Assembly (NCBI GenBank): GCA_934119935.1
Contig: CAKOSX010000001.1
Coordinates: forward strand, 332,299-396,298
Reading direction: 5' to 3'
DNA length: 64,000 bases
From: an uncultured Clostridia bacterium
GTDB taxonomy: Bacteria; Bacillota; Clostridia; TANB77; CAG-508
Shown: piece after piece, positions 2,726 to 54,795 of the stretch
How the letters are laid out: every line of letters begins with the position of its first letter
How positions within the stretch are numbered: position 1 is the first letter of the stretch
Program-made: the position numbers and the translations under genes
The notes under the pieces: generated by a model
Databases searched by the model: none
Told to the model about the DNA's origin: nothing
What the model saw: the letters and a program-made list of their open reading frames with translations, nothing else

Positions 2726-3304
2726 GTGAAGATTATAAACCATAGGAGAAAGAATATGGAGAACCAAACTTTTGCAGAATATATATTATCAGAGAAAGAC
2801 TGGATAAAAAAGATGGAGATAATGTATTACTTAAATAAAAGAGGAAACATTTTCTTCGATAATTCTGTTGTGTTTAAAACACAGTTATTAAAGTTGTTTT
2901 TAGACAATACGCCAGAGTTGAACTTTGACAACAACATATTGATAACTGCTTGTTTATTATGCAACTGTAAAAAGGTAGATAATTTTACAGACATGAATAA
3001 AATTAGGGCATATGCAAAAGAAGGAGCCGAATATTTATCAACACTTGGTTTTGACGATAGATTTTGCAGGATATGTGAGCAAATAAATAGATATAGTGGC
3101 TCAGAGCCAAGAGAACCAGAAGCAGACATATTAGAATTAATAGATCAGTTTGGTGGTATGCTTTTAGATAGACCAGAAAGAATAGGATTCAAGGTAGACG
3201 AAGCACTAGTTCTATTAGAGTACAGAAATTTAAAGGGAAAAGACAATAGATATATTGAAGTCTTTAAAAACTTTGTAAATAGAATGGAGGCAATAAAAGT
3301 ATGA
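2726..3304 (+). CDS. Hypothetical protein (Cys-containing, 192 aa)
   Basis: Intact ORF with RBS; stop overlaps next start (ATGA at 3301); no recognisable motif. Confidence 0.5.
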   Translation: MKIINHRRKNMENQTFAEYILSEKDWIKKMEIMYYLNKRGNIFFDNSVVFKTQLLKLFLDNTPELNFDNNILITACLLCNCKKVDNFTDMNKIRAYAKEGAEYLSTLGFDDRFCRICEQINRYSGSEPREPEADILELIDQFGGMLLDRPERIGFKVDEALVLLEYRNLKGKDNRYIEVFKNFVNRMEAIKV

Positions 3305-3639
3305 GTCTAGTAAACGAAAACGATTTGATAATACCTGGAACAGTCGGAATCATATCCGCAGCAGTAAAAGAGGCAAATAGACACTTAGACCAAAGAAGAG
3401 AACATGCAGAATTCGAAGAAAGCAAAAATAAAAACATAGCTGAATATATAAGAGAGACTCCTAAAATACAATTCATATTACAAAACAGAGTAAATGGAAT
3501 CCCTTTAGAACAACTAGTAAACCCTGCAAGAATATCAAACGACAGAACAAGAGTAAGTGTAAGCAAACAAGAAACTATTGAAGAACAATCAGAAAAAAGG
3601 CCAACTCAGAGGGCATATGAGGACTGGTTTAGAGGATAA
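3301..3639 (+). CDS. Hypothetical protein (112 aa), translationally coupled to upstream ORF
   Basis: ATGA overlap with 2726..3304; charged hydrophilic protein. Confidence 0.45.
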   Translation: MSLVNENDLIIPGTVGIISAAVKEANRHLDQRREHAEFEESKNKNIAEYIRETPKIQFILQNRVNGIPLEQLVNPARISNDRTRVSVSKQETIEEQSEKRPTQRAYEDWFRG

Positions 3640-3640
3640 A

Positions 3641-3720
3641 TTGTACAGCTCGTGTACAAACCGGTACAAAACGGGGACGGAGAAAAAAATGTACAGTTTG
3701 GGGACGAATAATGTCCCCTA
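3641..3720. repeat. GGGGACGGAG / TGTACA dispersed repeat unit plus GGGGAC-N7-GTCCCC hairpin
   Basis: gtacaaaccggtacaaaacGGGGACGGAGaaaaaaaTGTACAgtttGGGGACgaataatGTCCCC; same unit recurs at 19.5k, 23.9k, 43.5k, 51.7k, 53.9k. Confidence 0.7.
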
Positions 3721-3767
3721 ATTTTTTTGTAAAAGATCATAGTAAAATTTTAGAAAGAGGAAAAATT

Positions 3768-6883: not shown

Positions 6884-6957
<74 letters not shown>

Positions 6958-6972
6958 TAGCAAAATAAAATA

Positions 6973-6997
6973 GAGTCTCATAAGACTCTGTTTTTTC
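6973..6997 (+). terminator. tRNA terminator
   Basis: gagtctc-ataa-gagactc hairpin plus TGTTTTTT. Confidence 0.7.
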
Positions 6998-7004
6998 GTA
7001 TAAA

Positions 7005-7085
7005 GGGAATCGAAAAGGAGGAATAGAAATTAGTCCAGTGGACTAATTTCCCGACGCGGCTCGGCGATTCCCGCTACCTGCTCCA
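7005..7085 (+). other. tRNA 3'-end mimic element, copy 1 (Gly-UCC type)
   Basis: gggaatcg-aaaaggaggaatagaaattaGTCCagtGGACtaatttcccgacgcggctcgg-CGATTCCCGCTACCTGCTCCA. The last 21 nt are identical to the 3' end of the adjacent tRNA including CCA. The 5' gggaatcg is the reverse complement of cgattccc. Confidence 0.7.
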
Positions 7086-7253
7086 AGATTGCGAACCCAT
7101 ATTGATATAGAGATATTTCAATATGGTGTTCTTTTTTTGTTAAAAGTAATAGTGCTAATAAATGTTTTTATTAGCTTTAGATAATGCATACGTATTAAAG
7201 TTATTCTAAACACAAGGGGGTACCAGGAAATTCCTGATACCTCCATTGTGTTG

Positions 7254-8536: not shown

Positions 8537-8590
8537 GAATGAAAAGAGAAATTGGAGTTTTATATAACTTTAATTTTTTTCTTTTTATAA

Positions 8591-8671
8591 GGGAATCGAA
8601 AAGGAGGAGCAGAAATTAGTCCTGAGGACTAATTTCCCGACGCGGCTCGACGATTCCCATCATCTGCTCCA
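8591..8671 (+). other. tRNA 3'-end mimic element, copy 2 (Gly-CCC type)
   Basis: Same core as copy 1, but the 3' part is cgattcccATCATCTGCTCCA, matching the 3' end of tRNA-Gly(CCC) rather than Gly(UCC). Confidence 0.7.
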
Positions 8672-8726
8672 TAAAGTAAAAGAAAAATTAGAGCTTTTTT
8701 AAAACTTTAATTTTTTATTTTTTTGA

Positions 8727-8795
8727 GGCAATCGAAAAGGTGTAATAGAAATTAGTTTGGAAAATTAAATTTTCGATGTGGCTTGGCGATTTTCA
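8727..8795 (+). other. Degenerate third copy of tRNA 3'-end mimic element
   Basis: ggcaatcgaaaaggtgtaatagaaattagtttgg...gatgtggcttggcgattttcat; recognisably the same core but decayed. Confidence 0.5.
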
Positions 8796-8813
8796 TAGCA
8801 TATTCTATAATAT

Positions 8814-18555: not shown

Positions 18556-19485
18556 TTGATAAATTTTAGAACCGATTTGGCATTAGAAAGAAATGAAGTA
18601 TATAAAGAAAAAAATAAATTAAACGAAATTGATGGAGTATCTGTAAACAACGAAACAATAAACGAAGTAGAAATTTCGAGGATAAAAATATTAAACGAAG
18701 AAGGTGAAAAGATTCTTCAAAAACCAGCAGGAAATTATATCACGTTAGATGTAAAAAAATTAAAAATTGCAGACGAAGAAAGATTAAGCAAGATAGCAGA
18801 AACAGTAGCAGATGAATTAAGAAAAATAGTTGGAGAACATGTAAATGAAACAGAAGACATACTTGTAGTGGGACTCGGCAATTTATATGTAACGCCAGAT
18901 GCATTAGGCCCAAAAGTAGTTCCAGAGATAGAAGTAACGAGGCACATTTTAGAATATATGCCAAGCATAATGCCAGAAGACACAAGGCCAGTATCAGCAA
19001 TATCACCAGGAGTATTAGGAGTAACAGGAATAGAAACAATGGAAATACTAAAAGGCGTTGTACAAAACGTAAAGCCAAAGTTACTAATAGTAATAGATGC
19101 CCTAGCAACCAAAAGCATAGAAAGAATAAGCAGTAGTATACAAATTGCAGACACAGGAATAGTACCAGGTGCAGGAGTAGAAAATACAAGAAAAGAAATA
19201 AGTAAAAGAACACTAGGAATTCCAGTAATAGCAATAGGAATACCTACAGTAGTAGACTTAGCCACTATAACAAATGAATGCATAGACATATTTATAGAAA
19301 ACTTGCAAGAAAAAGCAATGTCAAACGACTATCTAAACAAACTAAAAGAAAACGACAACTACGAAGAAATAAAAGAAGCACTAGTTCCAAAAGACTACAA
19401 CATGATAGTAACACCGAAAGAAATAGACAAACTAATCGAAAACATGAGCAAAATTGTATCAAGTGCCATAAACATGGCCATGTAA
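18556..19485 (+). CDS. gpr: Germination protease (spore endopeptidase GPR)
   Basis: N-terminal RTDLALE signature; 309 aa; position after holA. Confidence 0.8.
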   Translation: MINFRTDLALERNEVYKEKNKLNEIDGVSVNNETINEVEISRIKILNEEGEKILQKPAGNYITLDVKKLKIADEERLSKIAETVADELRKIVGEHVNETEDILVVGLGNLYVTPDALGPKVVPEIEVTRHILEYMPSIMPEDTRPVSAISPGVLGVTGIETMEILKGVVQNVKPKLLIVIDALATKSIERISSSIQIADTGIVPGAGVENTRKEISKRTLGIPVIAIGIPTVVDLATITNECIDIFIENLQEKAMSNDYLNKLKENDNYEEIKEALVPKDYNMIVTPKEIDKLIENMSKIVSSAINMAM

Positions 19486-19494
19486 TACAATTTT

Positions 19495-19610
19495 GTACAT
19501 TTTGTACATTTTGGGGACGGAGAAAAAAATGTACAAGATTCTTATGCAGCTTGGGAACTGTGCAGTTTGGTGCAGTTTGGGGACGGAGAAAAAATTGTAC
19601 AAAATCTTAT
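19495..19610. repeat. Two GGGGACGGAG-N7-TGTACA units (period 66) in convergent intergenic region
   Basis: ttttGGGGACGGAGaaaaaaaTGTACAa ... gtttGGGGACGGAGaaaaaatTGTACAa. Confidence 0.8.
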
Positions 19611-19667
19611 AACAAAAAATTTCGTCCAGAAAAAAGTATTCTGGACGAAAGTATAGTAAAGCAATAT

Positions 19668-22755: not shown

Positions 22756-22830
<75 letters not shown>

Positions 22831-22999: not shown

Positions 23000-23737
23000 T
23001 TACCGCCACTTGCGGATAGATTCCCACTTTTTGCGGTACTCCTCATGCATAATCTTTTCGCCGCTAGAGAGAGGCACACGCATGCATTTCTCGTGGTATC
23101 CAGCGTCACGGAGATACTGGACAACTTTGTAGCCTCTGGTTACGTACGTATGACCATCACGGTATACGAACACTATAACGCCGTTGCTCATGTAATAGGT
23201 ACCAAGGTTTTCCTTGGTAAAGCCATCCATGCGGAAATTAACCAGCACGGGGTATGTGATACTTTCGTAACAAGTATACTTTACCCGAAGCCCTTCCATC
23301 GGAATCATGAGACTTTTTCTCATAACGACGGGACTCAAGGCTCCGATATGGTGTTCGTTGCAGAACTTTTCACATTCTGCCGAGAAGTTTTCTTCAGGAG
23401 TTTTTTTAGCCTTTTCCTGAAGATATTTCCAACGTTTTGCTTCACGCTTCGGACAATCCGAGGCAGAGAAGGGAACATAGAAATTAGCCTCTTTGAACGA
23501 ATTTTCCACGAGAGTAGCAATAGCCCGAGTTGTGTACGGAGCTACATAGTACTTGCTTTGGTGGATAAAACCTATAACCGTTGAGTTACTTACTGCGTAA
23601 CAGCCGTTGAATTTTTGTACAAAGAAATCCACGCTGAGTGTTACCTCATGCTTGGTGTCCTGGAAAACTGCTATCATTCCATGTGTGACACGGAATGAAT
23701 CGTGGATGAGATCGCCCAATGAATAAGTATTTGTCAT
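23000..23737 (-). CDS. Hypothetical protein (245 aa), high-GC
   Basis: Longer and more protein-like than the overlapping + strand ORF 22976..23584. Confidence 0.45.
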   Translation of the reverse strand: MTNTYSLGDLIHDSFRVTHGMIAVFQDTKHEVTLSVDFFVQKFNGCYAVSNSTVIGFIHQSKYYVAPYTTRAIATLVENSFKEANFYVPFSASDCPKREAKRWKYLQEKAKKTPEENFSAECEKFCNEHHIGALSPVVMRKSLMIPMEGLRVKYTCYESITYPVLVNFRMDGFTKENLGTYYMSNGVIVFVYRDGHTYVTRGYKVVQYLRDAGYHEKCMRVPLSSGEKIMHEEYRKKWESIRKWR

Positions 23738-23839: not shown

Positions 23840-24060
23840 AAAATAGTCAAACCAAAGGTGGCGAAAATAGAGTACAATTTTTCTCTTTCCACACAATATA
23901 CTTAAGGTGGCGAAAATAGAGTACGTTTTTTCCTCCGTCCCCAAAATGCAAAAATGCACTGTACATTTTTTCCTCCGTCCCCAAAATGAAGTCCCCAAAA
24001 TGAACGAACGAAATGAACGAGATGAACGAAATGTACGAAATACAAAATGGTACTTGATTT
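23840..24060. repeat. Repeat cluster: aaggtggcgaaaatagagtac x2, inverted GGGGACGGAG units x2, (a)tgaacga x3
   Basis: Direct reading of sequence. Confidence 0.75.
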
Positions 24061-27050: not shown

Positions 27051-27077
27051 ATTAATCAATTAATTAAGCAATTAAGC

Positions 27078-27184
27078 AATAATTTATATTTTTTAAAACG
27101 AGACTGGAAGTGCGCCTTTTGAGGGGTCCGTTAGGAGCCCCGACCAAGCACGACATGTTGAGGCTTTATAAAAATATAAATTAT
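27078..27184 (+). repeat. Palindromic element with conserved about 66-nt GC-rich core (copy A, + orientation)
   Basis: aataatttatatttttt-[aaaacgagactggaagtgcgccttttgaggggtccgttaggagccccgaccaagcacgacatgttgaggctttataa]-aaaatataaattatt. Confidence 0.7.
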
Positions 27185-27324
27185 TGCTATTTGGTTTTAA
27201 CCTATTAGAAAAGTATGACGGATTCCTTAGTAAATTATTGCATACAAAATTTATAATAAAAATTGTAGAATATTGTAAATAAAAGTTGCATATGATAGAA
27301 TAAGAAAAAAATAAGAGGTAGAAA

Positions 27325-30750: not shown

Positions 30751-30814
30751 AAAATATAGAATATATTTATTAAGGACAACAAAAAAAGTACTAATTATAA
30801 TTAGTATCTTACTT

Positions 30815-30896
30815 TGGTGCGGATGAAGGGACTTGACGAGCCACGTCGGGAAAACCGTCCACCGGACGCTTTTCTAATCCTCCTTTTCAAGTCCAC
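30815..30896 (-). other. tRNA 3'-end mimic element, copy 4 (Leu type)
   Basis: Reverse complement: gtggacttga-aaaggaggattagaaaagcGTCCggtGGACggttttcccgacgtggctcg-TCAAGTCCCTTCATCCGCACCA. The 3' 22 nt equal the 3' end of the adjacent tRNA-Leu. The 5' ggacttga is complementary to tcaagtcc. Confidence 0.7.
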
Positions 30897-30951
30897 AAAA
30901 ATTCTCAAAGGTAACAAAAAAAGATACCAATTATAAATTAGTATCTCATTC

Positions 30952-36841: not shown

Positions 36842-38825
36842 ATGAATAAGAAAATAAAAGAGGCTGAAAACCTTATGGCTGTACACACACACACACACAC
36901 ACGGACATTTTAAAGAAAAGGGAATAACATTAATTGCATTAGTAATCACAATTGTTGTTCTACTAATTCTAGCAGGAATAAGTTTGAACTTAGTACTTGG
37001 TGAGAACGGCATTGTTACGAAGGCGAAAGATGCAAGAGAACAAACAATAATAGGGCATGAAAAAGAGCAAATAAACTTAGCATATTCAGCATGTAAAACA
37101 AGAGAAAACTTTGATGATTTAGTTACAGCAAGTGAACTCGAAACAGAAATGAAAAAGTCAAATGAAAATGTATCTGTAGCAGCAGACGGAGACAATCTTG
37201 TTATTACGTTTGAAGAGACGAAGCACCAATACAACATTGGACAAGATGGAAGTTTTAAAGAAAATACTAATCAAAATATTGATTGGAGCACATTAGAGCC
37301 AGGGTTATACAAGACGGGAACATCAGAGATGATAAAATCTTGGCAAGAATTGATTGATGATGGAGACATAACAGTAGAAGGAACAAAGCTTAATGAAATT
37401 AAGACGATTTTTAGTTATGGCCAAGATGTAACTATGCCTCTGGCAGGAGATTTGATTATATCAAATGATATGACAGAAATTGGTAGCCTTACAGGAGGAA
37501 AAGCAGCTTGCTATGTTGGAAAATCAGGCATTACAGGCGTATATGTTCCATCAAGTGTAAAAAAGTTGACAAGTAGTAGTCAGTATGGCTATGGTGGCTT
37601 TTTTGCTATGTTTGATATGAAGAAAATTGTTATTGAAGAAGGGCTGGAAGAAATAGGAGATTATTCGTTTGCTAGTTGTTACAATCTTATAGAGGTAGAA
37701 TTACCAGATAGTGTTACAACAGTTGGTGACTATGCTTTCGCATGGAGCAGTAATATAGTGAATGTAAAAATACCGGATAATGTTATACTTGGCAAAGCAT
37801 GCTTTATAAGTAATAGATTAACCCAAATTCCTCAAAACATAACATCGATTGGTGAAACTATGTTTGCTAACTGTGAAGAATTGAAGGTGGTCAATATTCC
37901 AAATGGTATTACATCAATTGGAGCTAGAGCTTTTTCCGGTTGTGGTAATATAACGAGTATTAATATTCCAAGTAGTGTAAAAGTAATAGGAGAAGGAGCC
38001 TTTTTATACTGTGGTAATATAACGAACATTAATATTCCAGCTAGTGTAAAAGTAATAGGAAGAGAAGCTTTTTCCCGTTGTGGTAATATAACGAGTATTA
38101 ATATCCCAAATAGTGTAAAGAAAATAGGAGCTGAGGCTTTCAAGGATTGTGTGAACCTATCTGACATAAATGGATTTGACAATGCAATTTCAGTTGGTCT
38201 AAGGTCTCTAGATGGAACAAAGTGGTATAATAGTCAACCAGATGGAGAGGTATATATAGGAAAGACATTGTATAATTATAAAGGAACAATGTCAGCCGAT
38301 ACTAGATTAAAAATAAAAGATGGGACAGAAAATATTGCTGATAGAGCTTTTGAAGACTGTACAGGGCTAATTGAAGTGACACTACCATCTAGTGTAAAGA
38401 ATGTAGGAGAATATTGTTTTTATAATTGCAAAAATTTATCTGATGTAAATGTAAATGAAAGCATTGAGAGAATTGGATGGTGTGCTTTCAGCGGAACAAA
38501 ATGGCAAGATAGTCAAAATGATGGGTATATATACATAGGAAATGTACTTTATTATTATAAAGGTAGTGAAAGACCAAAAGAAGTACAGGTCAAGGATGGG
38601 ACAATCAGTATTACGGAAAGTGCTATTTATCCAGATACTATAATCATACCTAAAAGCGTGAAATATATAGGAGAAGGAATATTAGGAAGTAGGTGGAGTT
38701 GGAGTACATCACATAATTGTGTTGTAAATTATATGGGAACAGAAGAGGAATGGAATTCAATTGAAATTGAAGAATCAAATTTTTCTGGCAATCTTACCAT
38801 AAACTACAATTATACTGGAGAATAA
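36842..38825 (+). CDS. Prepilin-like-leader BspA-type leucine-rich repeat surface protein, phase-variable, currently frameshifted OFF
   Basis: ATG 36842 with RBS aggagg reads MNKKIKEAENLMAVHTHTHTRTF-stop. The -1 frame continues GHFKEKGITLIALVITIVVLLILAGISLNLVLGENG and LRR_5 repeats (IP.SV.SIG..AF..C). No start codon in the long frame. Confidence 0.7.
36883..36902 (+). repeat. (AC)10 dinucleotide tract inside 5' coding region
   Basis: gtACACACACACACACACACACgg at codons 15-21 of the ORF starting at ATG 36842. Confidence 0.95.
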
Positions 38826-42255: not shown

Positions 42256-43392
42256 ATGATGATAAATTTAAACCAAGGAAGAAAATATAAACAACTAAAC
42301 AAAGGAATAACTCTGGTGGCTCTTGTTGTAACGATTGTAGTTTTGCTTATATTAGCAGGAATAAGCATTAATCTTTTATTGGGTGAGAATGGCATAATAA
42401 AAAAAGCGAAAGAAGCGAGAGAAAAAACAGCAGAGGGCAAAACAAATGATATGCTTGGAATGAACCAGCTTATACAAGATATGTATGACTTAGAAAATTC
42501 CGAGAACAAAAAAGAGAATGATAAGGGTGATGACAAATCTGACGAAGTAAAAAAGTATAAAGTTACTATTCAATTTATTAATAGAGAAAATCAAAGCATA
42601 GTAAATTTTGGTAGTATCGAAATCTATGAAGGAGAATCAATTGGTCAAGATGCGAAGCAAATTGCAACCATTAGTGGAAAAAATGAAACAGAAAATGTTA
42701 TTTCTTTAGCTAAAGGCACATATACTGTAAGATGTTTGAAAGCACCTGATGGATACAAAAAAACAGCAGAAGATATTACTTTTAATGTGGATGAAAATGA
42801 TGAAAATAAATGGAAGATTGAAGTTACAAACGGTTCTTCAATATTACCTTCGACTGGTTCTTCTAGTATATACAGTATAACAGTTGAAGACGGAAGTAGT
42901 AACATTTCTACAAAAGGTGTTCAGTCTTTAACAGTACAATATGAGGGGCGTGAAGGAGTTAGATTAGAAATTATACCAATTGGAGAATATGATGAAAATA
43001 CGAAAAAAATTGTTGTAGATGATGAAATCGCCTCAATACTCGGAATAGAAAAAGAATTTGATAATAGAATAGTTGACTCGTCAAAAGCTGAAGATGTATA
43101 TCAGTATGTTAAGAAAAAACAGTTAATTGGAATTTCTAGTATAACCGACAGTGATGGGCGTTCTACGTTTTCGGAACTTGTGCCAAATATATATTTTGTA
43201 AAAACATCGTTGAGTAGCAAGTGTGATTTTATAATTAGTATGCCACTTTATGTGAAGGTGCCCGATGAAGAAGTATGTTATTATAATAGTGTTACTTTAA
43301 CACACGAAAAAAGAGGTACAGATAAGGAAGATGATTACTTTCTTGGAATTACAGACAATATAGATCAACCAATACCACCAATAAAAAAATAA
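42256..43392 (+). CDS. Prepilin-like-leader protein with two CnaB/SpaA-type pilin-like domains
   Basis: Leader KGITLVALVVTIVVLLILAGISINLLLGENGII; CnaB signature GTYTVRCLKAPDGYKK...ITFNV; second domain DGRSTFSELVPNIYFVKT; internal LPSTG. Confidence 0.6.
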   Translation: MMINLNQGRKYKQLNKGITLVALVVTIVVLLILAGISINLLLGENGIIKKAKEAREKTAEGKTNDMLGMNQLIQDMYDLENSENKKENDKGDDKSDEVKKYKVTIQFINRENQSIVNFGSIEIYEGESIGQDAKQIATISGKNETENVISLAKGTYTVRCLKAPDGYKKTAEDITFNVDENDENKWKIEVTNGSSILPSTGSSSIYSITVEDGSSNISTKGVQSLTVQYEGREGVRLEIIPIGEYDENTKKIVVDDEIASILGIEKEFDNRIVDSSKAEDVYQYVKKKQLIGISSITDSDGRSTFSELVPNIYFVKTSLSSKCDFIISMPLYVKVPDEEVCYYNSVTLTHEKRGTDKEDDYFLGITDNIDQPIPPIKK

Positions 43393-43482: not shown

Positions 43483-43530
43483 TGTACATTTTTTGCTCCG
43501 TCCCCGAAATGCTTTCCCGAAATGCTCTTT
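43483..43530. repeat. Inverted GGGGACGGAG/TGTACA unit
   Basis: TGTACAttttttgCTCCGTCCCCgaaatgctttcccgaaatgc. Confidence 0.7.
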
Positions 43531-46402: not shown

Positions 46403-48016
46403 ATGAAAGAAAAAAATATGCAAAACAAAAGCATTGAGATTGGAAAATCACAAGAAAAGAAAACAAGAGCAAAAGGAATAACGCTAATTGCCTTAGTAAT
46501 AACAATAGTTATACTACTAATATTAGCAGGAATAAGCATAAACCTGGTATTAGGCGAAAACGGAATAATATCAAAAGCTCAAGAATCAAGGCTAAAGTCA
46601 GACAATGCAACAGTTTCAGACTCATTAAAAATGATGATAGCAAGATACTCAATAGACGACATGGGCGAAGGCAAAACAGACGTACTTGCAAGACTGAATT
46701 CTGATGGAATAACAGACGCAAACGATGTAATAAATGTACCAGTTTTAGTCGGGGAAAAACTTGGAACAGGAAATGGTAGTGGAACAAAAGATGTGTATGT
46801 TATAAAAGATAACAAATTATACTACTATGACAAAAAAGGCGAAAAAACAGACCTTGGAGATATAGCCAACTTGCAATTTAGCGGAGACAAACAAGAATCT
46901 GGAATATTTGTAATTACATCAGATGGAACAGTATACATGAAAGATAGGCAGTCTGGAGTTTATAGCGATGAATATGAGCGTTCTACAAAAGAGGTTATAA
47001 TTCCGAGTGAAATAAATGGAATTAAAGTAAAAAAACTTGGAAATTATATGTTCTGTAACTACATTGCTTTAGAAACTGTTGGAATTCCGGATGGAGTAAC
47101 TGAAATTGGAAATTATGCTTTTTATGGTTGTAGCAAAATTGACAATATTGTTATGCCAAACAGTGTTGAATGGATTGGAAAAGGTGCTTTTTGTGAATGT
47201 AGTGAAATTGCTAATATTATAATACCAGATGGTGTTACTAGCATAGGAGATCTTGCTTTCGCAGGGTGTTCTGGCTTGGAAAATATAAAAATGTCGGAAA
47301 ATATACAATATGTTGGAGATTTAGCTTTTGCAGGAACCAAATGGCTAAAAACACTTCCAGAAGGACTACTTTATTTTGGGAATATTCTTTATGCTTATAA
47401 TGGAGAAATACCACAAGGTACAACTATAGAAATTAAAGATGGAGTTACAAGAATTAATGGAGAGGCTTTTTCAAATCAAAAGGGGCTAATAGCCATAAAA
47501 ATACCAGATAGCGTTAAAAAAATTGGAGGAAGTGCTTTTAGTGGATGCAGTGAACTGACAAGCATAATAATACCTGATAGCGTAACAAGTATAGGAGAAG
47601 ATGCTTTTGAAGATTGTACTAAATTATCAAGTATAGATATTTCTGATAGTATAGAATATGTAGGATATGATGCTTTTCAAAGGACAGCATGGCTTAACAA
47701 TCAAAACGATGGAGTGGTTTATATTGGAAAAATATTATACTGCTATAAAGGAGAAATGCCAAGCAATACAACTATAACGGTAAAAGAGGGAACTACAAGT
47801 ATTGCTGGAATCTGTTTTGCAGAATGTACAAACCTTATAAGTATTACAATCCCAAAGAGCGTAACATATATAGGAATGGGAGCATTTTATATGTGTGATA
47901 ATTTAAAAACAATAAATTATAAAGGTTCAAAGGAAGATTGGAATAATATAACAATTGAAATACAGGCACCTGATGGATCTGGAATAACTGCAACTATCAA
48001 TTATAATTATAAATAA
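46403..48016 (+). CDS. Prepilin-like-leader BspA-type leucine-rich repeat surface protein
   Basis: RAKGITLIALVITIVILLILAGISINLVLGENGII leader; multiple IPDSVTSIGD.AF..C LRR_5 repeats; RBS ttaggagg. Confidence 0.65.
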   Translation: MKEKNMQNKSIEIGKSQEKKTRAKGITLIALVITIVILLILAGISINLVLGENGIISKAQESRLKSDNATVSDSLKMMIARYSIDDMGEGKTDVLARLNSDGITDANDVINVPVLVGEKLGTGNGSGTKDVYVIKDNKLYYYDKKGEKTDLGDIANLQFSGDKQESGIFVITSDGTVYMKDRQSGVYSDEYERSTKEVIIPSEINGIKVKKLGNYMFCNYIALETVGIPDGVTEIGNYAFYGCSKIDNIVMPNSVEWIGKGAFCECSEIANIIIPDGVTSIGDLAFAGCSGLENIKMSENIQYVGDLAFAGTKWLKTLPEGLLYFGNILYAYNGEIPQGTTIEIKDGVTRINGEAFSNQKGLIAIKIPDSVKKIGGSAFSGCSELTSIIIPDSVTSIGEDAFEDCTKLSSIDISDSIEYVGYDAFQRTAWLNNQNDGVVYIGKILYCYKGEMPSNTTITVKEGTTSIAGICFAECTNLISITIPKSVTYIGMGAFYMCDNLKTINYKGSKEDWNNITIEIQAPDGSGITATINYNYK

Positions 48017-49781: not shown

Positions 49782-51713
49782 ATGTACGATGAAAAGAAAT
49801 TAGCGAAGGCTAAAGATATATTAAAGAAAAACAATCAAGAGAAAATTTTGATGTTTTTGAATAAGCTGGACGACGATAAGAAGGAAAGCTTGGCAGAACA
49901 GATTCTGAATTTGGATTTTGAACAGTTGAATAGATTGTATGCAGAAACAAAGACAGAGCCAGAAATATTGGAAAAGAAAATTGAACATACGAAATATGTC
50001 GATGAATATAAAATATCAGAAGAGATAAGAGAAAAGTATACAAAATTAGGTGAAAATGTAATAAAAAATAATCAGTATGCTGTTGTTACAATGGCAGGAG
50101 GTCAGGGCACAAGACTTGGACACAAAGGTCCAAAGGGAACATTTTTGCTAGATGTAATTCCAGAGCCTAAATATTTGTTCCAAATATTGGCCGAAAATTT
50201 GGAGAAAGCAAACAGAAAATATGGTGTTACATTACCTTGGTTTGTAATGACAAGCACAGAGAACAATGAAGAAACAGTAAAATTCTTTAAAGAGCACAAT
50301 TACTTTGGATATCCAGAGGAAAGCATTGAATTTTTTGAACAGGGAAATTTACCATTGTTATCTTTCGATGGAAGTTTAATATTGGATAAAGATTGTTCTA
50401 TTAAAGAAGCTGCAGATGGCAATGGTTGCATATATGCTGCCATGGCAAAGGCTGGAGTAATTGAAAAAATGAAGAAAATGGGCATAAAGTGGATCTTTAT
50501 AGGCTCAGTTGATAATGCTTTGTTAAATATGGTAGATCCAATTTTAGTTGGATTAACAATAGATCAGAAACACGAAATCGCATCAAAATCAGTTGCTAAG
50601 GCAAATCCACATGAAAGAGTTGGAGTATTTTGCAAAATTAATTCTGTTCCATCAGTTATAGAGTACAGCGAGTTGCCAGAAAAAATGGCAGAGGAGACCG
50701 ATAAGGATGGAGAGCTATTGTATGGAGAAGCACACATCATGTGCAACTTATTTAGCATAGATGCACTAGAAAAAGTATCAAAAGTAAAATTGCCATACCA
50801 TGTTGCAGTAAAAAAATCTGGATATATGGACGAAAATCTTGAATTTGTTGAGGCGGGAGAACCAAATGCATATAAATTTGAAGCTTTTATATTCGATGCT
50901 TTCAACTTTTTCGACGACATATCAATATTGAGAGGAAAAAGAGAATTCGATTTTGCACCAGTAAAAAATAAGGCTGGAAACGACAGTCCAGACACTGCAA
51001 GGGCATTGTACAATAATCTGGCAAGATGCAAGATAGAAAACCTATACAATTTGGATGAAACAATAGCAAAAGAATTGTTGGCAAAATATACATATCCATG
51101 GGAAGTGCTACCACACATAAGTGACTTTATCTTAGAGCTTGGAGAAAAACTTCCAAAAGACGAATACAAAAAAATTGGCGACGATGTATGGATTCATAAA
51201 TCAGCTACAGTATTTGAAACAGCATATATCCATGGACCAGCAATAATTTGCAAAGATGCTGAAATAAGACATTGCGCATTCATACGTGGAAAAGCGATAG
51301 TAGGAGAAGGCGCCGTTGTTGGAAACTCAACAGAGCTAAAAAATGTAATATTATTCAACAAAGTACAAGTGCCACATTACAACTACGTTGGAGACTCAAT
51401 ACTTGGATACAAAGCACACATGGGAGCAGGTTCAATCACGTCAAACGTAAAATCAGACAAAAAACTCGTAAAAATAAAATGTGGGATAAAACAAGAAGCT
51501 GAACAAGAGACAGAGCAAATAGAAACAGGATTAAAGAAAATTGGAGCAATGCTTGGCGACAACGTAGAAGTAGGATGCGGAAGCGTACTAAATCCTGGCA
51601 CAATAATAGGAAAAAACACAAACATATATCCTTTGTCATCAGTAAGAGGAGTAGTTCCTGCAAACAGCATATACAAAAGCAAAACAGGAACAGAAATAGT
51701 AGAAAAGAAATAA
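49782..51713 (+). CDS. Fusion of eukaryotic-type UDP-sugar pyrophosphorylase (UDPGP/UAP1-like) with C-terminal left-handed beta-helix (hexapeptide) domain
   Basis: VVTMAGGQGTRLGHKGPKGTF UDPGP signature; C-terminal 200 aa of imperfect hexapeptide repeats (IHGPAIICKDAEIRHCAFIRGKAIVGEGAVVGNST). Confidence 0.7.
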   Translation: MYDEKKLAKAKDILKKNNQEKILMFLNKLDDDKKESLAEQILNLDFEQLNRLYAETKTEPEILEKKIEHTKYVDEYKISEEIREKYTKLGENVIKNNQYAVVTMAGGQGTRLGHKGPKGTFLLDVIPEPKYLFQILAENLEKANRKYGVTLPWFVMTSTENNEETVKFFKEHNYFGYPEESIEFFEQGNLPLLSFDGSLILDKDCSIKEAADGNGCIYAAMAKAGVIEKMKKMGIKWIFIGSVDNALLNMVDPILVGLTIDQKHEIASKSVAKANPHERVGVFCKINSVPSVIEYSELPEKMAEETDKDGELLYGEAHIMCNLFSIDALEKVSKVKLPYHVAVKKSGYMDENLEFVEAGEPNAYKFEAFIFDAFNFFDDISILRGKREFDFAPVKNKAGNDSPDTARALYNNLARCKIENLYNLDETIAKELLAKYTYPWEVLPHISDFILELGEKLPKDEYKKIGDDVWIHKSATVFETAYIHGPAIICKDAEIRHCAFIRGKAIVGEGAVVGNSTELKNVILFNKVQVPHYNYVGDSILGYKAHMGAGSITSNVKSDKKLVKIKCGIKQEAEQETEQIETGLKKIGAMLGDNVEVGCGSVLNPGTIIGKNTNIYPLSSVRGVVPANSIYKSKTGTEIVEKK

Positions 51714-52003
51714 GTACAAACCTGTACAAACCGGGGACGGAGCAGAAAATGTACACTCGGAAAATGTTAAATGTACAAACCGGGGACGGAGAAAAAATTG
51801 TACACATAGAATTTATTAAATAAAAAGTACTAATTCATATTTTTAAAGCAAAAACGGAAGCTCGCCTTTTGAGGAGTCCAAAGGAGCTCTGACCAAGAGC
51901 AACGTGTTGTGGCTTTATAAAATATGAATTAGTACTTAAATTTTAAGCAAAATGTACATTTTTTTCTCCGTCCCCGGTTTGTACCGGTTTGTACAGATTT
52001 GTA
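51714..52003. repeat. Composite about 290-bp repeat: 2 direct GGGGACGGAG/TGTACA units, 111-bp palindromic core element (+ orientation), 1 inverted unit
   Basis: Core 51826..51936 flanked by perfect 24-bp arms aagtactaattcatatttt; outer arms ccGGGGACGGAG x2 left, CTCCGTCCCC right. Confidence 0.8.
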
Positions 52004-52015
52004 TTAGCTTGTTGT

Positions 52016-52387
52016 TTAGTTTTGTTCTGGAATGAAGTAGTCTACGACTCCGTAGATTAATGCACCTATTATTGCTGCAATCCAAGATATTGAGTATCCT
52101 GCTACGAAGTATTGGGTTACATATAAAACAACAGCTGCTAATATAAAACCAACAAATCCTTTACCAAATGCACTTGCATGAAGTCCTGTGAATTTTACAA
52201 GTAAAAAATCTATAACAGTTAAAACGACTGCTGCTAATGCTAGTGTCCAGATGCTGCTTATTGTAAATCCAGGAGTAAAGAATGCTGTTATAGCAAGTAT
52301 TACTGCTGATGTTACAAATCTTAAAATTACCTGAACAAAGGCGTTAGGACGTGAAGAACTTCTAGACTCGATGTTATTGTTATCCAT
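52016..52387 (-). CDS. DUF360 / phage-holin-4-like small membrane protein
   Basis: 123 aa, 4 TM, G-rich helices typical of YvlD/DUF360. Confidence 0.55.
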   Translation of the reverse strand: MDNNNIESRSSSRPNAFVQVILRFVTSAVILAITAFFTPGFTISSIWTLALAAVVLTVIDFLLVKFTGLHASAFGKGFVGFILAAVVLYVTQYFVAGYSISWIAAIIGALIYGVVDYFIPEQN

Positions 52388-52695
52388 AAAAACCTCCCAT
52401 GATTAATTTTTTTGATTTTTAATCTTTAATTTTTGAAACTTGATCTAATTGTACTAAATATTATTTGATTTAATTTGAATTGTTCTAAAATTAATTTGCT
52501 TTATTTACTCATAGTATTTACAGAAAAATATATAATATTCAAAAAATGAATAAATCATGAAAAAATAGCAAAAATAAAACTGAAAAAGATTTTTTATATT
52601 GAATTATACAGTTTTAGCTAATTCTATATGAATTTTATAATTTTATATAGACTTAGCATTTTATATAGAGTTTATGAGATACAATAAGGTTCTAT

Positions 52696-53424
52696 ATGAA
52701 ATTTACAGCATGGAGAAAGGAAGAAGAGGTTATGCTAGCAACTTTTTTCAGATCAATTATTATTTATATAATCGTTCTAATTGTTATGAGACTAATGGGA
52801 AAACGAGAGATAGGTCAAATGCAACCGTTCGAACTTGCTATTTCGATAATGATTGCAGATTTAGCGTCAATTCCGATGACTGACATAGGAATACCGATTT
52901 CAAATGGAATAATTCCAATATTAGGGTTGCTAGTAATGCACCTAGTTATATCAATTTTAAATATAAAAAGCAGTATGATAAGAGAATTTATATGTGGAAA
53001 GCCAACTGTGTTAATTAATAAGGGAAAGATAGACGAAGTTCAAATGAGAAAAGAACGTTTTACACTCAATGAGCTAGAAGAAAAACTAAGAAGCAATAAT
53101 GTTATGAATATTGGAGATGTGGAGTTTGCTATATTAGAAACGAGCGGTGACATATCTGTAATACAAAAACCGAACAAGAGAACGACAACTCCGGAGGATT
53201 TCAACATAATGCCAGACTATGAGGGTATGACGTATAACCTAGTAATTGATGGAAAAGTGATGAATGAGAATCTAAAACTTATAGAAAAAAACTATGATTG
53301 GTTAAAAAAACAAACTCAAAAATTTCAGATGATGCCAGAAGAGGCACTGATTGTAACAATAAATGAAAAAGGCAATATATTTTGTCAAAGGAAAGAAAGA
53401 AAAGAAAATGAAGAAAGGAAATAA
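52696..53424 (+). CDS. DUF421 (YetF-like) membrane protein
   Basis: N-terminal 3 TM plus YetF C-terminal domain; true start may be MLATFF (52732). Confidence 0.65.
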   Translation: MKFTAWRKEEEVMLATFFRSIIIYIIVLIVMRLMGKREIGQMQPFELAISIMIADLASIPMTDIGIPISNGIIPILGLLVMHLVISILNIKSSMIREFICGKPTVLINKGKIDEVQMRKERFTLNELEEKLRSNNVMNIGDVEFAILETSGDISVIQKPNKRTTTPEDFNIMPDYEGMTYNLVIDGKVMNENLKLIEKNYDWLKKQTQKFQMMPEEALIVTINEKGNIFCQRKERKENEERK

Positions 53425-53432
53425 TCCTGAAT

Positions 53433-53834
53433 ATGAAAAAAGAACTTATTATAGTAATTATAATAGTGATAGCAATAATTATAATAGATACTGTAACCCA
53501 TAATTATACCACGTATAGCTTTGAAAAAATAAACAATGAATTAGAACAAATAAAAGAAATAAGCAAGAAAATCGATGATCAAGAAAAAAACTCACAACAA
53601 GAACTTCAAGAAAAAATAAAAACAATGGAAGAAGATTGGAAAATAATAAATAGAAAAACAGCATTTTACATTGAGCATGAAGAGCTAGAAAAAGTAAATG
53701 CGTCAATGATAAAATTCAAAAGCTATATACAGTTAGAAGAATACACAGAAGCAATACCCGAACTAGAAAATTGCAAGTACATTTTAGACCATATACGAGA
53801 AAAAGAAAAAATGCAAATAATAAATCTATTCTAG
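53433..53834 (+). CDS. DUF4363-like protein (usual partner of DUF421)
   Basis: 133 aa, N-terminal TM, coiled-coil; gene pair architecture. Confidence 0.5.
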   Translation: MKKELIIVIIIVIAIIIIDTVTHNYTTYSFEKINNELEQIKEISKKIDDQEKNSQQELQEKIKTMEEDWKIINRKTAFYIEHEELEKVNASMIKFKSYIQLEEYTEAIPELENCKYILDHIREKEKMQIINLF

Positions 53835-54130
53835 TACAAACCGGTACAATTCGGTACAATTTGGGGACGGAGCTAAAAATGTACAATTGGAAAATATTAA
53901 ATGTACAAACTGGGGACGGAGCTAAAAATGTACATTAAAAAACTGTAAATACAAAAGTACTAAGTCATTTCTTATAAAGCTACGACACGTCGTTCTTGGT
54001 CGGAGCTCTTTCGGGCTCATCAAGAAGCGAACTTCCGTTCTTACTTTATAAGAAATGACTTAGTACTTAAATTTTTGAAAAAATGTACAATTTTTTCTCC
54101 GTCCCCGAATTGTACGCCGAATTGTACAAA
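53835..54130. repeat. Composite about 295-bp repeat, second copy, core element inverted relative to copy at 51.7k
   Basis: Core 53956..54066 with perfect 24-bp arms agtactaagtcatttcttataaag; inner 66 nt is reverse complement of the 51.8k core; outer arms same polarity as first copy. Confidence 0.8.
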
Positions 54131-54138
54131 TTATATCA

Positions 54139-54795
54139 TTATGTGCATATTTTGAATATGAAGCTTGTTAAAAATATGTATGCGTATTTGTAGAATTTTG
54201 TGTTTGATAGTTGGGCTTTATTATATTCGAAAAATGATTTTAAAGCACTACGTTTATCCATAATTGTTATTAGAAAGCTTTCTTTATATTTAGGAAGGCT
54301 TAATAATGTTACTGGCCACATGTGCTTTATGATTATGTCTTTTTCTTTATCATTTAAATTAAATAATTTTTCTGCGTTATATAAGGCAATTTGTGGATGT
54401 ATAAAAGCATGAAAATGTTTTAAATGAAGTTTTTTCTTAGAACCTCTCCAATCATATAAAAATAAATCGTGTAGCATTGCGCCCCTCGCAGCAGAAACAT
54501 AATCCCAGCCGTATTTTTTGCAAAATAAATATGACCAATAGGCAACTTCTAAGCAATGATCATAGCAAGAACAATCGTAGTGTTGCCTGAAATTTTTCAT
54601 CTGCTTTACTGTAGGATTTTCTAAAATATCTTTTGTTATATCTAAAAATTCGATTATATTATCATAGTTATATGTATGGGTACGTAACGGCATATCGCCA
54701 TGTATGCGCACTGGCACGCTGTCACGTGTGCTCTCGGAAAAATTGCTATGTGATTGTACATTAATCTTTTTCTCTCTAACCTTTAAAGTTTGCAT
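54139..54795 (-). CDS. HD-domain phosphohydrolase
   Basis: H...HD (AMLHDLFLYDW) motif; 218 aa. Confidence 0.6.
   Translation of the reverse strand: MQTLKVREKKINVQSHSNFSESTRDSVPVRIHGDMPLRTHTYNYDNIIEFLDITKDILENPTVKQMKNFRQHYDCSCYDHCLEVAYWSYLFCKKYGWDYVSAARGAMLHDLFLYDWRGSKKKLHLKHFHAFIHPQIALYNAEKLFNLNDKEKDIIIKHMWPVTLLSLPKYKESFLITIMDKRSALKSFFEYNKAQLSNTKFYKYAYIFLTSFIFKICT

Follow-up and report, generated by a model that had tools for sequence, protein, structure and literature searches.

Dispersed repeats in a 64-kb stretch of gut Clostridia DNA as probable REP/TIR-type partners of a RAYT-like Y1 transposase

Classical repetitive extragenic palindromic (REP) sequences carry a GTAG tag and belong to the REP-associated tyrosine transposases (RAYTs) of Groups 2 and 3, as in Escherichia coli and Pseudomonas. 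To our knowledge, studies of RAYTs and their REPs or REPINs (REP doublets forming hairpins) have been almost confined to Proteobacteria, and we know of no established substrate for the largest RAYT class (Group 1, subclass 2.1, TIRYT). Here we describe short dispersed repeat units, built as GGGGACGGAG-N7-TGTACA, in a stretch of 64,000 nt (hereafter the window) of contig CAKOSX010000001.1 from an uncultured Clostridia bacterium, together with a RAYT-like Y1 transposase gene that is flanked by inverted units in close relatives. We consider it probable that the units are REP/TIR-type repeats (TIR, terminal inverted repeat) that belong to a Y1 (HUH) tyrosine transposase, RAYT-like and of the TIRYT kind.

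TIRYTs are the RAYT-like genes of TIRtrons, flanked by inverted repeats with a common GGGGWSAS motif, and in some genomes these TIRs have been amplified to 'moderately abundant' families of singles, dimers and clusters; no REP or TIR family from Firmicutes is in the published lists (Di Nocera et al. 2013, PMC3733652). The TIRYTs correspond to TnpA-REP subclass 2.1, which has a C-terminal helix-turn-helix (HTH), to which 291 of 292 Group 1 RAYTs map and beside whose genes REP-like sequences were not found (Quentin et al. 2018, PMC6006769). Group 1 RAYTs occur in Clostridia too, and the 16-mers that flank them have only about 12 occurrences per replicon (Bertels et al. 2017, PMC5581495). The string GGGGACGGAG made no appearance in this context in the searchable literature.

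The repeat unit and its transposase

A scan of the window with the GGGGACGGAG-N7-TGTACA pattern, allowing up to two mismatches, gave 13 matches, where 100 dinucleotide shuffles predict 0.00, and the 10-mer GGGGACGGAG by itself also matched 13 times, with 0.33 expected. One of the pattern matches, at 26184, was rejected as a chance match and non-member because it lies within the coding DNA of a P-type ATPase, where it encodes TGDGVNDAP, and has neither A-run nor TGTACA. A profile built from dereplicated copies found exactly 12 full units and two fragments (3691-3706 and 24005-23991), a density of about one unit per 5 kb. The original prediction of at least 12 units in both orientations is thus borne out, and all twelve positions that it listed were correct to within 1-2 bases. 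The units split seven to five between the + and - strands within one replichore, showing no replication-orientation bias. TGTACA occurs 40 times in the window, where 16.5 are expected, so the additional palindromes noticed earlier are real; the excess arises from tandem 9-13-nt words of the GTACAnnnn type that stand immediately 5' of the core. The window has a GC content of about 31% and encodes a spore germination protease, and the host is therefore a spore-forming Firmicute.

In order to derive a consensus, 171 copies, gathered in the window, in two species-representative genomes and in 120 metagenome stretches, were reduced to 66 dereplicated contexts. They yield tGTACAaTTy-GGGGACGGAG-aAAAAAw-TGTACAa, a module of 33-34 nt that is conserved in sequence and lies between unconserved flanks. 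The 5' GTACA, which is outside the search pattern, is 82-97% conserved per position, and the A-run positions left free by the pattern are 86-97% conserved. The word of 9-13 nt on the 5' side of the core is often repeated two to four times, for example GTACAAACCG, TGTACATTT or GTGCAGTTTG, and some of these words take in the first core bases, as in CATTTTGGGGAC. Because both GTACA arms are conserved, they are able to pair in 54-64 of the 66 units. Stop codons are absent from all six frames in 54 of the 66 units, as compared with 0.2% of shuffled or random sequences. A small open reading frame (ORF) within the units was considered and dropped: the two 49-nt arrays carry non-synonymous differences and so give no sign of coding constraint. 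A known RNA family was likewise rejected as the identity of the units, since Rfam gave no match at the gathering threshold across the whole window and none at E <= 10 around the composite loci described below.

An inverted partner lies within 400 nt of 22 of the 66 units, with preferred spacings of 40, 68, 78, 96, 120, 158, about 195 and 244 nt. The shortest doublet is a perfect 40-nt palindrome, GGGGACGGAG-A7-TGTACA-T7-CTCCGTCCCC, in which the two units have one central TGTACA in common, and this bare head-to-head doublet folds into a strong hairpin (-25.6 kcal/mol, z = -9.5). Single 33-nt units and bare 40-nt doublets are the predominant forms. The predicted array periods proved correct: 49 nt separate 51733 from 51782 and 53863 from 53912, and 66 nt separate 19513 from 19579. 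There is a further 40-nt pair at 23942/23982. To all appearance the 49- and 66-nt arrays arose through tandem duplication of a unit together with some 20 nt of flank. The units thus form mosaics that resemble bacterial interspersed mosaic elements (BIMEs), as had been suggested, made up of doublets in head-to-head arrangement, of tandem arrays and of composites in which units are joined to a second hairpin element.

The family is found on at least 120 human-gut metagenome stretches of 25-35% GC and in the species-representative genomes, and hence is not restricted to these 64 kb. The DNA of the window itself recurs, identical or near-identical, in many human-gut metagenomes including Hadza samples, and the motif was not found in viral contigs. 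In a 16-base pattern scan of genome contigs, about 80 of 94 stretches reflected chance in high-GC coding DNA (e.g. a ..GTE.GMY.. motif), leaving as informative only Clostridium sp. CAG:245, a Hadza Clostridia metagenome-assembled genome (MAG), possibly L039, and two other repeat families (L numbers designate the loci compared).

The lead to an enzyme came from a tblastn search of the unit-bearing loci with an E. coli RAYT sequence, which matched one ORF in two loci and was taken as no more than a lead until Pfam, NCBIfam, PDB and fold searches bore it out; IS608 TnpA as the probe gave nothing significant. The ORF encodes 245 aa (L198, 2945-3682; L124, 1081-1815, the same locus from another sample) and matches Pfam Y1_Tnp above the cut-off (E = 8.6e-9). 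Its sole NCBIfam match is to NF047646, REP-associated tyrosine transposase (REP_Tyr_transpos), scoring 72 bits where the cut-off is 80, and among PDB sequences only 4ER8, the complex of E. coli TnpA-REP with a REP hairpin, matches with E < 0.01. The same structure is the best fold match (E = 6.9e-5) of an AlphaFold2 model of the protein (pLDDT 85), followed by the TnpA proteins of ISDra2 and IS608. The motifs N-H-x-H and Y-I-x-x-N-P are invariant among 19 homologues, and the HUH and Tyr motifs are intact. E. coli TnpA-REP has 165 aa as against the 245 aa here, and the C-terminal region is helical with confidence in the model. Judged from models and sequences, the C-terminal third of the RAYT homologues appears HTH-like; the unit-adjacent copy has no Pfam HTH match, and the matches in homologues fall below the curated cut-offs (HTH_3 in P0140, E = 7.6e-4; Sigma70_r4_2 in L048, E = 3e-3).

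Units stand on both sides of this gene. In L198 a canonical unit (2643, +) and a degenerate unit about 300 nt upstream of the gene lie on the + strand, and an inverted unit at 3683-3720 overlaps the stop codon of the transposase. The RAYT occupies the same chromosomal position in two species with 80%-identical flanking genes, consistent with what would be vertical inheritance. L124 was obtained from metagenome sample ODHV01, which also holds L153, a locus 94.9% identical to the window. In about 1 Mb of unit-bearing loci no DDE transposase came to light beside units; these loci were screened with Y1 queries alone and for that reason give no systematic exclusion of other transposases.

Inverted flanks around the gene were seen in six lineages in all. 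RAYT homologues of 30-68% identity have flanks with GGGGAC(G)G kept and all else different, and GGGGACGG is the flank motif in most of the lineages. The flanks read GGGGACGGGG + GTACA in L223 (68% identity), GGGAAAT-GGGGACGGTTCGG-ATTTCCC in L226 (54%), GGACAAG-GGGACGGTTCT-CTTGTCC in L228 and L230 (39-49%) and GGATTA-GGGGACACTCC-TTAATCC in L232 (32%), where GGGGACAC is an exact fit to GGGGWSAS. In three homologue flanks the motif sits between short complementary arms, a layout matching GTACA...GGGGACGGAG...TGTACA. At L048, in Fermentibacteraceae, a homologue of 326 aa (30% identity; Y1_Tnp, E = 4e-11) has a unit of the repeat GGGGACGGAGTACAACTTGTACAACTT placed 11 nt past its stop codon.

Two high-GC lineages have dispersed repeats of their own that contain the same 10-mer. 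In the Fermentibacteraceae MAG JAWLEP01 (L015, L047, L048 and L081; phylum Fermentibacteria) these are GGGGACGGAGTACAACTTGTACAACTT repeats, and the MAG was recovered only because they matched the search pattern. Acidobacteriota MAGs (L007, L071, L077 and L092) carry ..GGGGGGCAGGGGGGACGGAGTCCCCACTGTACAC.. repeats with a GGGGAC/GTCCCC hairpin, and no RAYT lies within 8 kb of them. The two lineages are not related, and each has its own repeat family.

Placement and change of the units

The units had been described as always intergenic, which holds for all 12 in the window but not for related genomes, where a few copies lie inside ORFs. Many units abut stop codons. In 31 dereplicated units the first word begins between -1 and +15 nt from the TAA or TAG stop of a long ORF on the same strand, and the 5' word is often fused to the stop codon, as in TAGTACAAACC or TAA-TGTACA. 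Among the convergent gaps that hold a single unit, seven of eight units abut the gene in sense with the unit, and antisense units are not at stops. The orientation bias in gaps between co-directional genes is weak (15 sense versus 9 antisense). Three copies in related genomes are inside ORFs and are read in a common frame, ..GDGE(K/E)N(V/A)..; one of these is in a Pfam-confirmed valyl-tRNA synthetase (ValRS), between the catalytic and anticodon-binding domains, and two are in an ORF of 2430 aa.

Some units have become part of the ends of genes. Several ORFs run through into a unit at their 3' end, and in three copies the GGAG-N6/7-ATG of the unit is the start of a long ORF. At about 3274 (-) of L104, as compared with 8982-9038 of L117, it serves as the ribosome-binding site and start of a real-looking ORF, where it supplants the native GGGAGG Shine-Dalgarno sequence of L117; unit-supplied starts were also seen in L205 and L206. 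In the window, the GGGGAC of the partial unit at 3691..3728 is the 5' arm of a terminator-like hairpin, GGGGAC-gaataat-GTCCCC, which is followed by a T-run. Units may plausibly have been co-opted, whether to provide a terminator stem (3700-3728), a bidirectional terminator (doublets) or a Shine-Dalgarno sequence with ATG.

The repeats differ between relatives. A syntenic relative with about 80% nucleotide identity has zero units in 21 kb; of its two orthologous convergent gaps one is 62 bp long and holds a plain terminator hairpin, and the other is 0 bp. At both composite loci there is no difference among four same-species strains, and relatives at roughly 93-97% identity differ by gain or loss of units, by the number of 5' words and by having a bare doublet versus a composite. 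Thus the locus of the germination-protease gene (gpr) has one unit in L168 versus two in the window, and the composite of about 300 nt found at 53835-54138 of the window corresponds in L153 to a bare palindromic doublet. Word number at orthologous loci varies in steps of 10-20 nt. The rearrangements are concentrated at the 5' word. Further filled and empty pairs at other loci show an insertion of about 27 nt (word, core and A-run) immediately 5' of a pre-existing ATGTACA (L104 versus L117) and a 50-nt deletion that ends exactly at the 5' word (L174 versus L194). In another pair, L074 versus L148, an insertion of 82 nt stands precisely between a stop codon and the terminator belonging to it. 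Comparison of filled and empty sites showed no target-site duplication at composites or at single units, and GTACA was rejected as such a duplication since the empty site of L148 is without GTAC.

Features of the window

The units and the copies of a second, long-hairpin element (LHE) are listed in Table 1.

Table 1. Positions and parts of the repeat units and long-hairpin elements in the window
Feature	Position	Strand	Parts and surroundings
Unit 1	3642..3695	+	Three 5' words (TGTACAgctcg, TGTACAaaccg, GTACAaaac); core 3673-3682; A7; TGTACA 3690-3695; begins 3 nt past stop of ORF 3301-3639; strains at ~97% identity have one word fewer
Partial unit	3691..3728	+	GTACAGTTT-GGGGAC; from profile search and direct sequence reading
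Unit 2	19486..19535	+	Words TACAATTT, TGTACATTT, TGTACATTTT; core 19513-19522; immediately follows TAA stop of gpr (18556-19485); missing in L168 (96.8% identity)
Unit 3	19559..19601	+	Words GTGCAGTTTG x2; core 19579-19588; then bidirectional terminator hairpin 19620-19650; kept in L168, where the word is TGTACATTTT
Unit 4	23920..23959	-	Core 23933-23942; degenerate 3' hexamer CGTACT
Unit 5	23960..24040	-	Core 23973-23982; preceded by partial duplication (CATTTTGGGGAC); GTTCAtttc word run to ~24040
Unit 6	43483..43524	-	Core 43496-43505; both neighbour genes antisense to unit; word GCATTTCGGGaaa duplicated; L151 is without this 13-nt word duplication
Unit 7	51714..51755	+	Core 51733-51742; immediately past TAA stop of gene 49782-51713
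Unit 8	51772..51804	+	Core 51782-51791; left arm of 194-nt composite; in inverted repeat of 32 nt, 97% complementary to 51953-51984
LHE	51824..51939	+	Between units 8 and 9; 24-bp AT-rich arms, conserved ~62-nt multi-stem apex
Unit 9	51953..52005	-	Core 51966-51975; composite right arm; words abut stop of gene 52016-52387 (- strand); two words fewer in L153
Unit 10	53836..53885	+	Core 53863-53872; first word overlaps TAG stop of gene 53433-53834
Unit 11	53902..53934	+	Core 53912-53921; left arm of 195-nt composite; missing in L153 (95% identity)
LHE	53952..54071	-	Between units 11 and 12; apex opposite to that of the 51824 copy; missing at orthologous site of L153
Unit 12	54084..54128	-	Core 54097-54106; composite right arm; abuts stop of gene 54139-54795 (- strand)
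LHE	27070..27188	+	No flanking units

The LHE forms the interior of the two largest unit clusters, and because one copy stands without units it is an independent element. It is 113-125 nt long, its arms of about 24 bp differ in sequence between copies with their complementarity kept, and its apex reads ..GGAAGCUCGCCUUUUGAGGAGUCC-loop-GGAGCUCCGACCAAGAGCGACGUGUUG... A further 20 distinct copies were found in loci L104-L207, mostly between convergent genes, with or without flanking inverted GGGGACGGAG units. Across 22 distinct copies, 19 of the 26 predicted pairs show compensatory changes, covariation is seen in three inner stems, and one strand is favoured by the G-U pairs. Rfam gave no match in 51600-54300, which holds two of the three window copies. 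The LHE could be a structured RNA of 3' untranslated regions (UTRs) or terminators, or a second hairpin-type mobile element. An invertible switch at the apex was rejected: the four same-species strains are identical, and the opposite apices are therefore two separate insertions and not a flipping segment. A hammerhead or other self-cleaving ribozyme in the apex was also rejected, as the core motifs misfit by eye and Rfam was silent.

A different element, of about 135 nt, is linked to tRNA genes. It lies at 6956-7086, 8542-8671, 8678-8796 and 30799-30950 (-) of the window, where it follows the Gly-TCC, Gly-CCC and Leu-TAG genes in one to three tandem copies, and it was also seen in L107, L117, L123, L104, L191 and others, after genes assigned from a reading of the anticodon loop as Phe-GAA, Met-CAT and Thr-GGT. 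Each copy consists of a small terminator hairpin followed by a conserved stretch of about 64 nt, GGAATCGAAAAGGAGGAATAGAAA-hairpin-CCCGACGCGGCTCGG. Its 3' end duplicates the last 22 nt or so of its own tRNA, from T-loop to CCA, and its 5' end is complementary to a tRNA-specific piece with which it co-varies (GGGAATCG/CGATTCCC, GTGGATTCG/CGAATCCAC and GGACTTG/CAAGTCC). It matched no Rfam family and nothing in the literature. It could be either a miniature element with tRNA T-loops as its integration sites or an RNA that mimics the 3' half of a tRNA.

Between the tRNA-Gly gene (22756-22830) and units 4 and 5 there is an ORF of 245 aa (23000-23737, -) in a stretch of about 41% GC, as compared with 31% for the window. 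It has no Pfam or NCBIfam match, and upstream of it are a consensus sigma-70-like promoter and a direct repeat, GGTGGCGAAAATAGAGTAC (23857-23877 and 23906-23925). This stretch may be acquired DNA. The gene at 49782-51713, which ends at unit 7, encodes a 643-aa fusion of a UDP-sugar pyrophosphorylase and a left-handed beta-helix protein, in place of which L100 (10001-11955, about 80% identity) has one gene for 424 aa and, adjacent to it, another for 221 aa. Repeats with a 69-nt period (37824-38168 and 47081-47635) and common 5' regions of about 130 nt (36918-37047, 42301-42430 and 46472-46601) occur in and between large surface-protein-like genes, the products of which carry LRR_5 and SpaA domains in the identical contig L095. 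These repeats are ordinary paralogy and are unrelated to the units.

Interpretation and comparison with known systems

Several explanations of the units were weighed. One is that the unit is primarily a cis-acting 3' UTR RNA element, namely a protein site, a 3'-end stabiliser or terminator, or a re-initiation signal GGAG-N7-AUG, that has spread by its usefulness. This agrees with the 31 units at same-strand stops, with the single-unit convergent gaps in which the sense gene is abutted in seven of eight cases and antisense copies keep away from stops, with conservation of sequence and not of structure, with the reading of the unit as a Shine-Dalgarno sequence and start codon that begins long ORFs in three copies, and with the unit fragment that forms a terminator stem at 3700-3728. 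However, function leaves the origin of copies at new loci unexplained, the orientation bias in tandem genes is weak (15 to 9), some copies are antisense (43505) while others stand upstream of genes (23942 and 23982) or in frame inside ORFs, there is neither an Rfam match nor covariation, and the repeated association with RAYTs across five lineages would be coincidental. We regard this explanation as unlikely, and an RNA function would be compatible with the units as mobile repeats if it is a secondary co-option.

To two further explanations we attach less weight still. Double-stranded DNA sites for a dimeric host regulator or nucleoid-associated protein, with TGTACA palindromes about one helical turn apart, had been raised as an alternative in the original prediction; they are not needed to account for the units, but would be in keeping with the perfect and enriched palindrome (40 versus 16.5) and with the word period of 9-10 nt, and the C-terminal HTH-like domain of the RAYT clade could itself bind double-stranded DNA. 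This seems very improbable, however, as the most conserved part, GGGGACGGAG, is asymmetric, the locations are gene 3' ends and not promoters, the units are missing from 21 kb of the syntenic relative that has the same genes, copy number varies among close relatives, and no candidate regulator was found near the units besides the RAYT. The units might otherwise be ends or remnants of a miniature inverted-repeat transposable element (MITE), cut and pasted by a DDE transposase with TIRs and target-site duplications. The composites at 51782-51975 and 53912-54106 do have inverted ends with GGGG outward, like Tn3-type TIRs, but target-site duplications were seen at neither composites nor single units, single 33-nt units and bare 40-nt doublets dominate, the interior hairpin element is also found alone, and the only transposase found beside units is of the Y1 type, in loci that were screened with Y1 queries only. 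We give the MITE explanation hardly any credence.

The REP/BIME-like reading of the original prediction is instead supported by the Y1_Tnp gene flanked by inverted units, by 4ER8 as its best fold, by the GGGGAC(G)G flanks of distant homologues and by the BIME-like mosaics, and REP/TIR-type repeats of a TIRYT-like enzyme are the explanation that we consider probable. A number of points weigh against this. The RAYT- or IS200-like transposase that was proposed to accompany the repeats exists in close relatives, but the window itself holds no RAYT gene, and the tie of the enzyme to the window genome consists of a sample shared with a 95%-identity relative and the association at family level. Transposition alone does not predict the tight, orientation-specific abutment of stop codons. 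The filled and empty pairs are not clean, as the 82-nt insertion holds extra sequence and its empty site (L148) is without GTAC. Most external copies were gathered with the motif itself, so that the collection itself imposed the core and the greater part of the 3' TGTACA, and their conservation is partly ascertainment. A unit on its own gives a weak hairpin (0 to -7.4 kcal/mol), and for some copies shuffled sequences fold at least as well; positions -4 and +16 vary independently within the family, and a selected extended stem inside the unit is hence unsupported. The consensus lacks an unpaired GTAG tag, CGTC is present solely within the core complement CTCCGTCCCC, and the core GGGGACGG is one mismatch (position 7) away from GGGGWSAS. 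We know of no subclass 2.1 RAYT that has been shown to move any DNA, and E. coli TnpA-REP has reportedly been shown only to cleave and rejoin DNA in vitro.

By analogy with IS200/IS605 transposases and TnpA-REP, the enzyme would recognise folded single strands of a unit or doublet, such as those of the lagging-strand template. Its substrate could be the weak hairpin in which the GTACA arms pair and leave GGGGACGGAG as loop, or else the strong one of the doublet, and GGGGACGG would be the specific determinant. The tyrosine would nick near GTAC through a 5'-phosphotyrosine intermediate and then rejoin, so that word, core and A-run are copied or pasted beside a TGTACA/GTAC target with no duplication. 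Because TGTACA is palindromic, two insertions on opposite strands at one target could give a doublet, and aberrant cleavage or rejoining at the 5' GTACA word could give the 9-13-nt stutter and adjacent deletions. Copies would be kept for the most part in the few neutral bases that separate a stop codon from the terminator. The abutment of stops could possibly result from purifying selection that leaves only these bases neutral in a compact genome, or possibly from real targeting of single-stranded or hairpin DNA near terminators.

More tentatively, and as less likely than not, we suggest that a Group 1/subclass 2.1 RAYT, of a class taken until now to have weak or no association with repeats, drives a dense and still-changing REPIN-like population in these uncultured gut Clostridia; that the asymmetric GGGGACGG, kept from Firmicutes to Fermentibacteria, is the recognition element of the clade in the role of GTAG; that insertion is directed to TGTACA or to the junction of stop and terminator; and that co-option routinely turns copies into terminators, starts of translation or peptide inserts read in frame. 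Dense, strain-variable repeats with a sharp 10-nt core beside this class of RAYT offer a concrete DNA substrate for biochemistry, and the lineage is a natural system for asking whether such enzymes still mobilise DNA. The units break metagenome assemblies of these gut Clostridia and alter gene ends, as C-termini are read into them and some supply a Shine-Dalgarno sequence and ATG; annotators should therefore know of them.

Of the known kinds of repeat, CRISPR arrays were dismissed in the original prediction, rightly so: the arrays here have 2-5 units, their 'spacers' are themselves repeated, units are dispersed on both strands and no cas genes were seen. The Rickettsia palindromic elements (RPEs), for which we know of no dedicated transposase, and intragenic REPs resemble the units in that in-frame copies are tolerated inside essential genes (here the ValRS linker and the 2430-aa ORF) and in the lack of a stop in any of six frames; unlike the units, RPEs are 100-150 bp with a CGTC tag, and in-frame copies are a small minority here. 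With the IS200/IS605 family (IS608, ISDra2) the enzyme has in common the catalytic fold with HUH and Tyr motifs. As in their 'peel and paste' movement, change is concentrated at one boundary, and one case here suggests insertion beside a short target, TGTACA, with no target duplication. The ends of IS200/IS605 elements are, however, same-orientation hairpins on one strand and the transposase gene is carried along, whereas the flanks in our case are inverted and amplification of the repeats has not taken the gene along.

The classical REP/REPIN-RAYT systems are closer. Like REPs, the units are short extragenic repeats of high copy number at gene 3' ends, mostly in convergent or co-directional gaps; they form REPIN-like head-to-head doublets that would fold as long hairpins, and BIME-like mosaics with other motifs; and a Y1 transposase with inverted copies on either side (L198, L124) keeps its chromosomal position in two species. 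They differ in having no unpaired GTAG head, a low-GC Firmicute host and a RAYT of a different subclass, and in that a single unit is a poor palindrome with an asymmetric G-rich 10-mer in the would-be loop.

The closest likeness is to the TIRtrons and their TIRYTs. Both have a Y1 enzyme longer than E. coli TnpA-REP, here with a putative C-terminal HTH-like extension, and the class-2 tyrosine signature Y---NP with the Y1 HUH core, a gene flanked by inverted repeats of which the 3' one overlaps the stop, a GGGG(A/T)(C/G)-type motif, and amplification of the TIRs as singles, dimers and clusters in some genomes. The units depart from this pattern in their core, GGGGACGG, which mismatches GGGGWSAS once, and in their density of 12 per 64 kb, which is far above that of the 'moderately abundant' families and of about 12 per replicon. 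Architecture and flanking motif, as opposed to phylogeny, would fit an assignment to TIRYT, subclass 2.1 and Group 1. Collectively our data fit a new and much denser family in a new host group, which belongs to a known kind of selfish or domesticated DNA and not to a new kind of system.

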